Of a stretch of 59,960 bases of DNA, positions 58,725-59,837 are shown one piece after another. The first letter of the stretch is position 1, and the number at the start of each line of letters is the position of its first letter. The stretch lies in the IMG/VR virus record IMGVR_UViG_3300032295_002318, positions 1-59,960 of that record. One strand, 5' to 3'. The DNA comes from a virus. Taxonomy: Duplodnaviria > Caudoviricetes. Made by a program: the position numbers and the translations under genes. A model generated the notes under the pieces. It saw only the letters and a program-made list of their open reading frames with translations, did not search any database and was not told the DNA's origin.

Positions 58725-59735
58725 TTAGAGCAAACCGCCATCACGCCAAATCTGAACGGTTCGCTTGGCATGATTTAGCTTTTCGTTGCTCGTTGCGAAG
58801 TGCACAAGGTACGCATCTTTCACGCCTTGCCAGAAGCCCGGAAAGTAGAACTGCCAGTTCATCCGTGAATCGAGTTCCTCATAGCCAAGCCTGAACGCTG
58901 ACTGCTCAACGTAGAGCTGCTCGGAAGTGTGGTTCGTGTTCATCGTTCGCGGAGGCTGTGACCATATCCCAGCGTGCGACTGCTTGCAGTAAACCACGCC
59001 TGAGTTCAGGCACGTATCGCGTTGCTCAAACTCAACTCCAATGCCCTTGCCTACAATCTCTCTTTGCGACTTGAGCCACGATGTTTCTGCAAGATACTTC
59101 CAATCGTCATGAATCATGATCCCGGCATCGGTACCGAACAAGCTCGGCGCGTCCGGTCGAATGACGCAGTCGGCATCAATAAACAAAGTCTCTTGGTACT
59201 GTTCAGAAAAAAACAACGTTCTGAATTTCTCGAAGCCCCACCAAAGTTCTGTTTGGTTCGTCAGTTCGATGTAGTCGGCATCGTTCCGCATCGCGTAGGA
59301 TCGCAGGTAAGGCCGCGTGAAGTCGAGCAAATCCCGAAACGCCTTACCAGTAGCAACGGTGACTACGCAACGTGTACGGCCCGTTTTCGGCCTCTGATGA
59401 CGCCATAGCATCAATGCTTGGTTGAGCGTTATTTCTTGGTAGCCGAGTTTTCGATTAACTCGATTATGCCACTCAATCCCACGGGCAAAGAACGCCTCGG
59501 GGCTCGTGAAGTCCGGTGGAAGCTCCTCTTCGATTTCGGCGAAGTTCGAAGCACACGAACAACCCTGCGAAGGGATGTAACGTTTCCAGTTGGTGAAGAA
59601 CTCTTCGGTTGGGTTTTGCTCAAGATGTAACCTTGACCATGGTGGAAGCGTAGCCGCTCTCGCGTTGGGGTTTTGAGAACTTGACGGGTCGATCGGCAAT
59701 CCGTTGACGGTAATCTTTACCACGACAGAATCCAT
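58725..59735 (-). CDS. Erv/ALR-like sulfhydryl oxidase domain fused to GT-A glycosyltransferase
   Basis: WSRLH...IPSQGCSCASNF...PPDFTS...WHNRVNRKLG; then LFIDADC, LNSGV, SEQ, HFA. Confidence 0.75.
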   Translation of the reverse strand: MDSVVVKITVNGLPIDPSSSQNPNARAATLPPWSRLHLEQNPTEEFFTNWKRYIPSQGCSCASNFAEIEEELPPDFTSPEAFFARGIEWHNRVNRKLGYQEITLNQALMLWRHQRPKTGRTRCVVTVATGKAFRDLLDFTRPYLRSYAMRNDADYIELTNQTELWWGFEKFRTLFFSEQYQETLFIDADCVIRPDAPSLFGTDAGIMIHDDWKYLAETSWLKSQREIVGKGIGVEFEQRDTCLNSGVVYCKQSHAGIWSQPPRTMNTNHTSEQLYVEQSAFRLGYEELDSRMNWQFYFPGFWQGVKDAYLVHFATSNEKLNHAKRTVQIWRDGGLL

Positions 59736-59837
59736 TTCCTTCCAGCCATAAAGGGGATAGAAATACTCCAAGTATTGCAAACCTGAGTGGCCGCAGGATC
59801 GAGTTCGAAGCATGTATTGTCGTCGCAATCACCTTCG

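Follow-up and report, generated by a model that had tools for sequence, protein, structure and literature searches.

Can a tailed phage of a bacterium make disulfide bonds in its own particle proteins within the reducing cytoplasm of its host? The question is raised by two overlapping genes on the minus strand of the IMG/VR virus record IMGVR_UViG_3300032295_002318, whose whole stretch of 59,960 nucleotides (the window) was analysed here. One gene encodes an enzyme in which an Erv/ALR-like sulfhydryl oxidase domain precedes a glycosyltransferase-like domain, and the other encodes a cysteine-rich protein. Erv oxidases encoded by viruses count as a hallmark of the nucleocytoplasmic large DNA viruses (NCLDVs) and the baculoviruses. 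Judged by comparative genomics, which supports it well, the pair represents a real and conserved Erv variant system, undescribed so far. As to what it does, we lean slightly towards a dedicated cytoplasmic maturation enzyme that would form disulfides in, and glycosylate, the neighbouring cysteine-rich virion protein.

The enzyme gene runs from 59735 to 58725 on the minus strand and encodes 336 residues. Its reading frame is open from 58725 up to a TTG at 59828, and the ATG at 59735-59733, with GGAAGGAA upstream, was taken as the start in agreement with the N-termini of the homologues. An earlier note, made from the bare sequence, had let the feature end at 59837. Its border at 58725 stands, and the genome unit, not the gene, has its limit at 59837. 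The Erv hallmarks listed in that note (W..LH, F......P..C.C...F, PP....S, HN.VN..LG) are all present, as WSRLH, FFTNWKRYIPSQGCSCASNF, PPDFTS, and HNRVNRKLG. The Erv/ALR-like domain comprises residues ~28-116 (59388-59654, minus strand). The enzyme itself only just reaches the Pfam family Evr1_Alr (27.6-27.7 bits at a cut-off of 27.6, E 3.5e-6), and its single-sequence match to the solved ALR and Erv1p structures is weak (E 0.24-0.73). The homology of this borderline protein to Erv is accepted because its homologues and the family profiles match Erv clearly. A scan of 1.84 billion cluster representatives (50%-identity clusters) for the enzyme family retrieved 1085 clusters at E<=1e-3, of which 358 reach <=1e-10 and 82 reach <=1e-30. 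Close relatives of the same length number 36, all metagenomic. PF04777 is matched by 22 of 52 diverse homologues (best 8.6e-14). A profile of the full-length family finds Erv1p, African swine fever virus (ASFV) pB119L, and ALR at 3e-6 to 1e-4 (best 3.3e-6), and a profile built from 23 phage Erv domains finds pB119L (3gwl) at 4.3e-9, Erv1p (2hj3) at 1.4e-8, and ALR (1oqc) at 5.8e-8. The Erv matches of this latter profile in the PDB extend from 4.3e-9 to 8.3e-5 and cover positions 11-96 of its 104. A word-index search with the same 23-domain alignment returned one protein, the stand-alone Erv protein P0145 used as query returned no viral locus, and PHROGs, NCBIfam, and PADLOC contain no match for the enzyme.

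The conservation within the domain is that of the Erv enzymes. Invariant in the 23 diverse phage Erv domains are W8, W25, C34, C36, F58, H65, N66, A82, and W86; the Erv motifs W-x3-H, HNxVN, and C-terminal W are recognised in these positions. In the window enzyme W33, H37, H90, N91, V93, N94, K96, and W111 are invariant or nearly so. The flavin-side motif H90-N-R-V-N94 (59454-59468, minus strand), whose H and N are invariant, falls on the HNEVN, HNTVN, or HNNVN of solved Erv enzymes, and the flavin-side residues as a whole align with those of ALR, Erv1p, and pB119L. We take these residues (W-x3-H, HNxVN, K, and the C-terminal W) to contact or line the flavin adenine dinucleotide (FAD). At the level of sequence, the assignment of the earlier note is thus borne out by Pfam and profile matches and by a recognisable FAD-side site with conserved motifs.

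The redox site is different. The canonical P-C-x-x-C is replaced by P-x-x-x-C-x-C, so that C59-S-C61 (59553-59561, minus strand) takes the position of the FAD-proximal CxxC. The earlier note had read CSC as standing in for CxxC, and HMMER does set the C-x-C on the C-x-x-C of pB119L, Erv1p, and ALR with a one-residue gap. Among 86 Erv domains drawn from 184 collected proteins, 75 have CxC (74 by pattern, and P0130 on inspection), six CxxC, three CC, and one a single cysteine, and one is truncated. A relative from a Pirellulaceae bin has PCGAC, a CxxC, at the same place. The retention of a cysteine pair while its spacing varies fits a redox-active disulfide. By these alignments, the N-terminal half is a divergent CxC subgroup homologous to Erv and not a canonical member of that family.

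The C-terminal half (residues ~119-330, 58746-59381, minus strand) is read as a transferase of the GT-A type resembling glycosyltransferase family 8 (GT8). The enzyme itself has no Pfam glycosyltransferase match at E<=1, and 24 of the 52 diverse homologues match PF01501 (GT8, best 3.3e-13). Profile-to-PDB matches in this half are to glycogenin-1 and -2, LgtC, the Skp1 galactosyltransferase AgtA, and a GT8 protein; they are weak (E 0.02-0.9) but consistent, being nearly all to GT8 or GT8-like proteins, and one unrelated structure appears among them at 0.053. The DxD that the earlier note had seen behind the Erv domain is D187-A-D189 (59169-59177, minus strand). All members of the close family have D187, D189, N244, G246, and H312, which are nearly invariant in the wide alignments too, and the DAD and NSGV of the family align with the same motifs of glycogenin-2. 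H312 presumably has the functional role of the conserved C-terminal histidine of GT8 enzymes. Among the best 150 of the 1085 cluster representatives, 47 have the Erv-GT8 architecture, 53 consist of GT8 alone, 36 have another N-terminal region of >110 residues, eight are GT8-GT8, three are Erv alone, and three are others. A few homologues carry methyltransferase, sulfotransferase, or GT2 domains.

This variety bears on whether the Erv-like domain is an oxidase at all. Only the GT8 half might be catalytic, and the Erv-like domain might be a pseudo-oxidase, a non-redox dimerisation or docking module that holds the cysteine-rich protein. For this speaks that GT8 is the constant partner, combined with an N-terminal module that is variously an Erv domain, a second GT8, or a CxxC-rich region, that the canonical CxxC is missing, and that there is neither a conserved shuttle disulfide nor a redox partner. 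However, the cysteine pair and the flavin-side motifs are invariant across very divergent sequences, and cysteine has been lost in only one of 85 complete Erv domains. In addition, CxC, CxxC, and CC interchange at one site, as would be the case for a redox pair but not for a decayed site. A pseudo-oxidase seems unlikely.

The supposed substrate is encoded by a gene that spans the ends of the genome. Window bases 1-123 and 59838-59960 are an exact 123-bp terminal repeat, and the cysteine-rich gene starts with the ATG at 947-945, continues to base 1 with the codons of residues 1-315 of its 355, and is completed on 59717-59837 (all minus strand). The earlier note had described a cysteine-rich gene that crosses the origin and overlaps the enzyme gene, and this is what is found: the protein begins MACAGGCTSCCCCG and contains 25 cysteines (7.0%), and the stop codon (59719-59717) falls 19 nt inside the enzyme gene. 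The median cysteine content of the 57 minus-strand frames of at least 150 residues is 1.7%, and the pooled content is 0.98% in the other open reading frames (ORFs) of the structural region versus 1.94% in the rest of the genome. Sixteen homologues were found, none of them annotated. Conserved are 20 cysteines, namely C7, C10-C13, and fifteen scattered along the chain. The N-terminal cluster C3..C7..C10-C13 (CAGGCTSCCCC, 909-941, minus strand) is nearly invariant in the family and is followed by an invariant LPDYYC. The total is 25 cysteines in 12 of 15 full-length members, and subfamily-specific cysteines have been gained or lost together (C77 with C80, C121 with C325, and a set of four cysteines in the other subfamily). 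This is as expected of disulfide partners, although it amounts to only two or three events. The protein thus looks disulfide-bonded rather than zinc-finger-like. An N-terminus of the form MG...CCC was also considered as an acylation signal and was rejected, since we know of no bacterial enzyme for such a modification.

The cysteines might instead be metal ligands, for zinc or for an iron-sulfur cluster, above all in the N-terminal CCCC or in CxxC..CxxC arrangements, with the enzyme serving in the assembly or protection of the metal site. The N-terminal cysteine clusters are the only feature common to the unrelated groups of cysteine-rich proteins, one large group begins with CxxC-x8-CxxC, and gpL at the tail tip of phage lambda carries an Fe-S cluster. 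But most of the 20 conserved cysteines are isolated and not arranged in CxxC pairs, there is no invariant histidine, cysteines are gained and lost in pairs, and Erv domains are disulfide catalysts. We regard metal binding as the purpose of the cysteines as improbable.

How regularly do the two genes occur together? Scanning IMG/VR yielded 74 related viral loci, 70 of which include upstream sequence. According to hidden Markov models of the two halves, Erv and GT8 are joined in one ORF at 62 of the 74 loci, GT8 has another N-terminal region at eight (L054, L057-61, L074, L075), and four loci break off where the contig ends. Immediately upstream, in the same orientation and extending to the start of the enzyme gene, 67 of the 70 loci have an ORF of at least 150 residues with at least 5% cysteine (20-43 cysteines); of 434 other ORFs in this size class, 3.0% reach that content. 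Each of the three exceptions has its own cause or form: the neighbour in L038 is cut by the contig end (4.2% cysteine), the wrong ORF was picked in L060, where the true neighbour has 6.0%, and L058, with 3.2%, is of the GT8-GT8 form. The reciprocal search with the cysteine-rich family found the enzyme gene directly downstream at nine of nine loci. The co-occurrence of Erv and a cysteine-rich gene in related phages, which the earlier note proposed as a check, is therefore very strong; a thioredoxin, named there as a third member, was not seen beside the pair in other lineages, and the candidate gene with a CPPC motif, to which we return below, is present in three of five related records.

The upstream proteins are far from uniform and form 10 BLAST components. 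Profile-profile comparison of the four largest groups gave no global similarity (probability <=19.5%), and the N-terminal poly-cysteine stretch alone aligns, weakly; similar N-terminal cysteine clusters recur in other lineages, in upstream proteins that are otherwise unrelated. Some relatives deviate further. L054 (5152-7214) encodes a GT8 with a ~280-residue N-terminal region rich in CxxC pairs in place of Erv, its upstream protein has 36 cysteines (9.9%), and its next gene resembles a galactose-3-O-sulfotransferase (phrog_3347, 3.9e-9). The lineage of L024-L027 and L033 has a second cysteine-rich protein before the main one (260-261 residues, 12 cysteines, with a tail rich in C-x-C; L024:3899-4684).

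The adjacency could also be without functional meaning and reflect synteny from one ancestor. The enzymes form only 8 clusters at 50% identity, a caveat on the linkage (INDEPENDENCE), and the types of cysteine-rich neighbour follow the GT8 tree: on a tree of 28 representative GT8 domains they change 8 times, which is the minimum possible. The association is therefore mostly inherited and not repeatedly re-invented. However, linkage and cysteine-richness persist even though the neighbour has diverged past recognition by BLAST and HH comparison, the pair has moved together into an unrelated backbone, and it is adjacent at different genome positions with overlapping genes. The move is seen in L004, whose flanks are unrelated to the window while the two genes are 75% and 83% identical to those of the window, so that the two genes have been exchanged together as a unit. 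In the syntenic loci L005 and L009, the neighbour is 26-34% identical to that of the window, compared with 52-55% for the enzyme and 41-89% for the flanks. Among syntenic relatives, the cysteine-rich gene is, on these identities, the fastest-evolving gene of the structural module. That a neighbour evolving this fast has diverged past recognition and yet has stayed cysteine-rich and adjacent, and that the pair is exchanged as a unit, argues for function. A meaningless synteny is highly improbable.

The position of the pair allows some statements about expression. On the minus strand, the cysteine-rich gene (947 to 1, 59837 to 59717) is followed by the enzyme gene (59735 to 58725) and by a holin-like gene (58675 to 58352). 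Upstream of the cysteine-rich gene, and adjoining it, lies a structural-module gene of 218 codons (947-1603, minus strand) without a family match for its product, which is conserved together with a 633-residue gene in the syntenic relatives. Its stop codon and the ATG of the cysteine-rich gene overlap by one base (TGATG). Promoter- and terminator-like sites around the pair are not commoner than in shuffled sequence. From the stop/start overlaps and the lack of an excess of such sites, the 218-residue, cysteine-rich, and enzyme genes look co-transcribed on one message and translationally coupled. In the window the cysteine-rich gene stands at the end of the tail module, before the lysis genes; elsewhere the pair is found before the large terminase and before a metallophosphoesterase. 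In L086 (2256-8540), a contig binned with a Pirellulaceae metagenome-assembled genome, the cysteine-rich gene and an Erv(PCGAC)-GT8 gene have the head maturation protease on one side and the major head protein on the other.

Such positions could be those of an accessory cassette directed against the host, which rides module borders: the GT8 would alter the glycans of the host envelope, for example to exclude other phages, and the cysteine-rich protein would be a non-virion effector. The pair does sit at module boundaries (tail and lysis in the window, before terminase, before metallophosphoesterase) and moves between backbones. GT8 enzymes commonly build lipopolysaccharide, and some relatives have sulfotransferase or methyltransferase domains or neighbours. 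However, both proteins lack export or membrane signals, the genes overlap with same-strand structural genes with no more promoter-like sites than shuffled sequence, the L086 pair is located within a block of head genes, and PADLOC has no match. In addition, the persistent cysteine-richness of the neighbour and the fused oxidase domain would be left unexplained. We do not consider a host-directed cassette likely.

The neighbour itself is probably a surface-exposed virion protein, either of the tail and receptor-binding type or a decoration protein, in line with its gene position and its rate of change; receptor-binding proteins are usually fast-evolving. The earlier note had called it a tail tip protein. 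This label derives only from the position of the gene in the window and does not suit the pair of L086 in its head module, so that "protein of structural modules" is the safer label.

A maturation enzyme could work as follows. In the cytoplasm of the infected cell, translation of the cysteine-rich protein would shortly precede that of the enzyme on their common message. The Erv-like domain, which like its relatives is probably a dimer with bound flavin, would use its CxC to oxidise cysteine pairs in the neighbour and pass the electrons through FAD to O2, in a host cytoplasm that is otherwise reducing. The GT8-like domain, metal-dependent through its DxD and retaining, would glycosylate the neighbour as well, taking the sugar from a nucleotide-sugar donor. 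The product would be a rigid, covalently stapled, and glycan-bearing particle protein, whose N-terminal CCCC cluster might, speculatively, knot subunits together or bind metal. The enzyme would be soluble and cytoplasmic, with neither protein of the pair having a transmembrane or signal-like segment: the cysteine-rich protein has no hydrophobic segment either, and the maximal 19-residue hydropathy of the enzyme is ~1 versus 2.2-2.5 in the holin-like and CPPC proteins. FAD binding, the two activities, the neighbour as substrate, and its presence in the virion are inferred. More tentatively, and at somewhat short of an even chance, tailed phages of aquatic bacteria (possibly Planctomycetota) may run their own cytoplasmic oxidative folding and glycosylation, in which a CxC-type Erv oxidase adapted to the bacterial cytoplasm and fused to a protein glycosyltransferase would build a disulfide-knotted, glycosylated, and fast-evolving receptor-binding or surface protein.

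Several points weigh against a maturation enzyme. The canonical FAD-proximal CxxC is absent from the enzyme, which has C59-S-C61 instead, and we know of no FAD-proximal CxC described in Erv enzymes, which makes the activity uncertain. A conserved second (shuttle) disulfide is not seen in the close-family alignment. The Pfam Erv score of the enzyme itself is borderline and not accompanied by a direct GT8 match. At the eight loci with context in which GT8 is found without a detectable Erv (with a second GT8 or a CxxC-rich region), the cysteine-rich neighbour is still present; Erv is therefore dispensable in some lineages and GT8 the more constant partner. The 67 linked loci represent few independent events, the linkage being largely vertical. 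As for a location in the virion, PHROGs, Pfam, PDB, NCBIfam, PADLOC, and the ESM Atlas contain no match for the cysteine-rich protein, and the pair of L086 belongs to a head module. The N-terminal CCCC cluster may also be a metal-binding site. Finally, a thioredoxin-like gene was not seen beside the pair in other lineages, and the CPPC protein of the window, while present in three of five related long records, is not found in the two more distant ones.

This CPPC protein (14571-15011, minus strand) had been suggested in the earlier note as a possible partner. It consists of an N-terminal hydrophobic helix, membrane-anchor-like by hydropathy, and a short C-terminal part with a thioredoxin/glutaredoxin-like CxxC...cis-Pro pattern, in which the CxxC is invariant and a proline is conserved at the cis-Pro position of the thioredoxin fold. 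Its sole similarity, to a glutaredoxin, is weak (E 0.055). With its helix and its patchy occurrence, a role as relay in the system is possible but unsupported.

Compared to known systems, the phage enzyme is closest to the viral Ervs. In poxviruses, the Erv oxidase feeds a thioredoxin-fold relay that acts on cysteine-rich virion proteins. E10R of vaccinia virus and pB119L of ASFV have roles in making virion disulfides, and the presumed job common to the viral Ervs and the phage enzyme is the formation of disulfides in virus proteins in a reducing cytoplasm. ASFV pB119L (3gwl), vaccinia E10R, baculovirus P33/Ac92, and mimivirus R596 likewise have a domain of minimal size with a single cysteine pair beside the flavin-side motifs, and pB119L is the best PDB match of the 23-domain Erv profile (4.3e-9). 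Ac92 and R596 share with the phage enzyme the fusion to another domain. NCLDVs and baculoviruses are known to have Ervs without the shuttle disulfide or with additional domains fused to them, many viral Erv enzymes have no shuttle pair, and CxC occurs as a shuttle motif in cellular Erv enzymes (PMC3509050). Unlike the known viral Ervs, the phage enzyme belongs to a tailed phage of a bacterium (portal, protease, minor tail, and holin matches), and it has CxC, a glycosyltransferase partner, and an adjoining cysteine-rich gene, with no conserved thioredoxin-fold relay found. The cellular Erv1, ALR, and Erv2 belong to the same family by profile and have the W..H, HNxVN, and C-terminal W in common with it, but their CxxC, shuttle arm, and structural Cx16C pair are missing in the phage enzyme.

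For the other half, the GT8 members glycogenin and LgtC (PF01501) provide the comparison. They have the DxD, the NSGV-like motif, and the C-terminal histidine in common with the phage enzyme, and glycogenin demonstrates that GT8 enzymes can glycosylate proteins. In contrast to them, the window enzyme reaches no Pfam GT8 score and carries the Erv fusion, and to our knowledge GT8 enzymes fused to Erv have not been reported. Mycobacteriophages reportedly encode glycosyltransferases that modify their own virion proteins (capsid and tail tube). That glycosylation involves other glycosyltransferase families and substrates, no oxidase domain, and no cysteine-rich target. Both chemistries are combined in the sublancin locus of SPbeta, whose oxidoreductases are of the membrane or thioredoxin type and whose SunS is a GT2 enzyme. 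The operon is sunA-sunT-bdbA-sunS-bdbB, with a product that is S-glucosylated on Cys22 by SunS and disulfide-bonded by BdbB (PMC6391423). Like the phage pair, the locus thus applies glycosylation and disulfide chemistry to one phage-borne product; however, sublancin is a small bacteriocin that has a leader peptide and is exported, not a protein of 291-472 residues in a structural module, and its enzymes are encoded by separate genes, with thiol-disulfide oxidoreductases that are not of the Erv type, instead of one fusion (PMC6391423).

In general, the genome is that of a tailed phage. The virus genome is complete and ends in direct terminal repeats, its record being classed as 100% complete; the unit length is 59,837 bp, and nearly all genes are on the minus strand. 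PHROG matches identify the portal (20150-22351, minus strand, phrog_7595), a protease/capsid-like gene (16319-17518), and minor tail proteins (12879-13580 and 8525-9412), as well as a sliding clamp and a helicase. Five large genes without a family match follow from 7694 down to 947 on the minus strand and lead to the cysteine-rich gene, and these neighbours in the tail module have no PDB or family match. One structural-module protein of 738 residues (5478-7694, minus strand) contains no cysteine at all, and neighbours of 669-1186 residues with 0-1 cysteines are found in related phages (L024-L027, L052, L053, L062). Such cysteine-free large proteins may reflect an avoidance of stray thiols in particles assembled beside an oxidase. 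Four small ORFs (68-103 residues) in the early/replication region (27558-28018, 41847-42158, 42397-42672, minus strand) have 8-11% cysteine and may encode zinc-binding proteins.

The gene directly downstream of the enzyme gene (58352-58675, minus strand) is holin-like (phrog_13918 at 2.1e-8; phrog_2359, 'holin', at 7.4e-4; hydrophobic segment with a Kyte-Doolittle value of 2.16) and is the probable start of a lysis cassette. Beyond it (56234-58416, minus strand) follow a two-helix membrane protein of 124 residues (58042-58416) and ORFs of 91, 206, and 329 residues. These four have no family or PDB match, the 329-residue protein included at the level of significant PDB matches, and are kept in the syntenic relatives at 50-80% identity. 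They probably represent the remainder of the lysis cassette. A hairpin with a 13-bp stem and a following T run at 56085-56114 (plus strand) lies inside 55603-56233, a region without a long minus-strand ORF, and is a possible terminator between two gene blocks.

The host can be narrowed down only loosely. The C-terminal ~100 residues of the portal ORF (residues ~570-690) form a separate domain that is 40-58% identical in phages of Roseobacter, Pelagibacter, Flavobacterium, and Methylophilales and in Nitrosopumilaceae viruses, some records naming it 'HVA1 family protein'. Outside this domain the portal has no match in cultured phages, and the enzyme has no tblastn match among 50,697 phage records; therefore, no cultured relative is known. 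In bacterial genomes, sampled as one genome per species, 14 loci were matched, mostly of the GT8-GT8 form, and 12 of the 14 are in Pirellula, Pirellulaceae, or Planctomycetota bins. The portal of the window was not found in four of five of these Planctomycetota-type bins, and the single Erv occurrence among 151 sampled Planctomycetota genomes comes from the phage-like contig. Phage contigs placed in bins say little about the host, which is possibly a member of the Planctomycetota. The genome contains no tRNAs. DNA of the window is present in freshwater or aquatic metagenome runs, and no RNA run containing it is listed among the public runs.

The earlier note knew of no such system in tailed phages, and our literature search, outside of which lay subscription papers and supplements, likewise turned up nothing relevant, neither a phage Erv oxidase nor a disulfide-rich phage tail protein. 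If the reading as a maturation enzyme is true, the CxC (and CC) sites would offer a natural variant of the Erv active site for study. Current systems for recombinant disulfide-bonded proteins borrow yeast Erv1p, and the phage would provide an enzyme adapted to the bacterial cytoplasm for this use, from a two-gene cassette that is small and directly testable in Escherichia coli. Particle proteins of these phages would be disulfide-rich and probably glycosylated, which would bear on host range, particle stability, and immune recognition. With 62 fused loci in IMG/VR and 47 Erv-GT8 proteins among the best 150 clusters, cytoplasmic disulfide formation by viruses would be extended to bacteria, and on the more tentative reading given above the phage system would be a prokaryotic-virus counterpart of, and a possible evolutionary link to, the pathway considered typical of the giant eukaryotic viruses.

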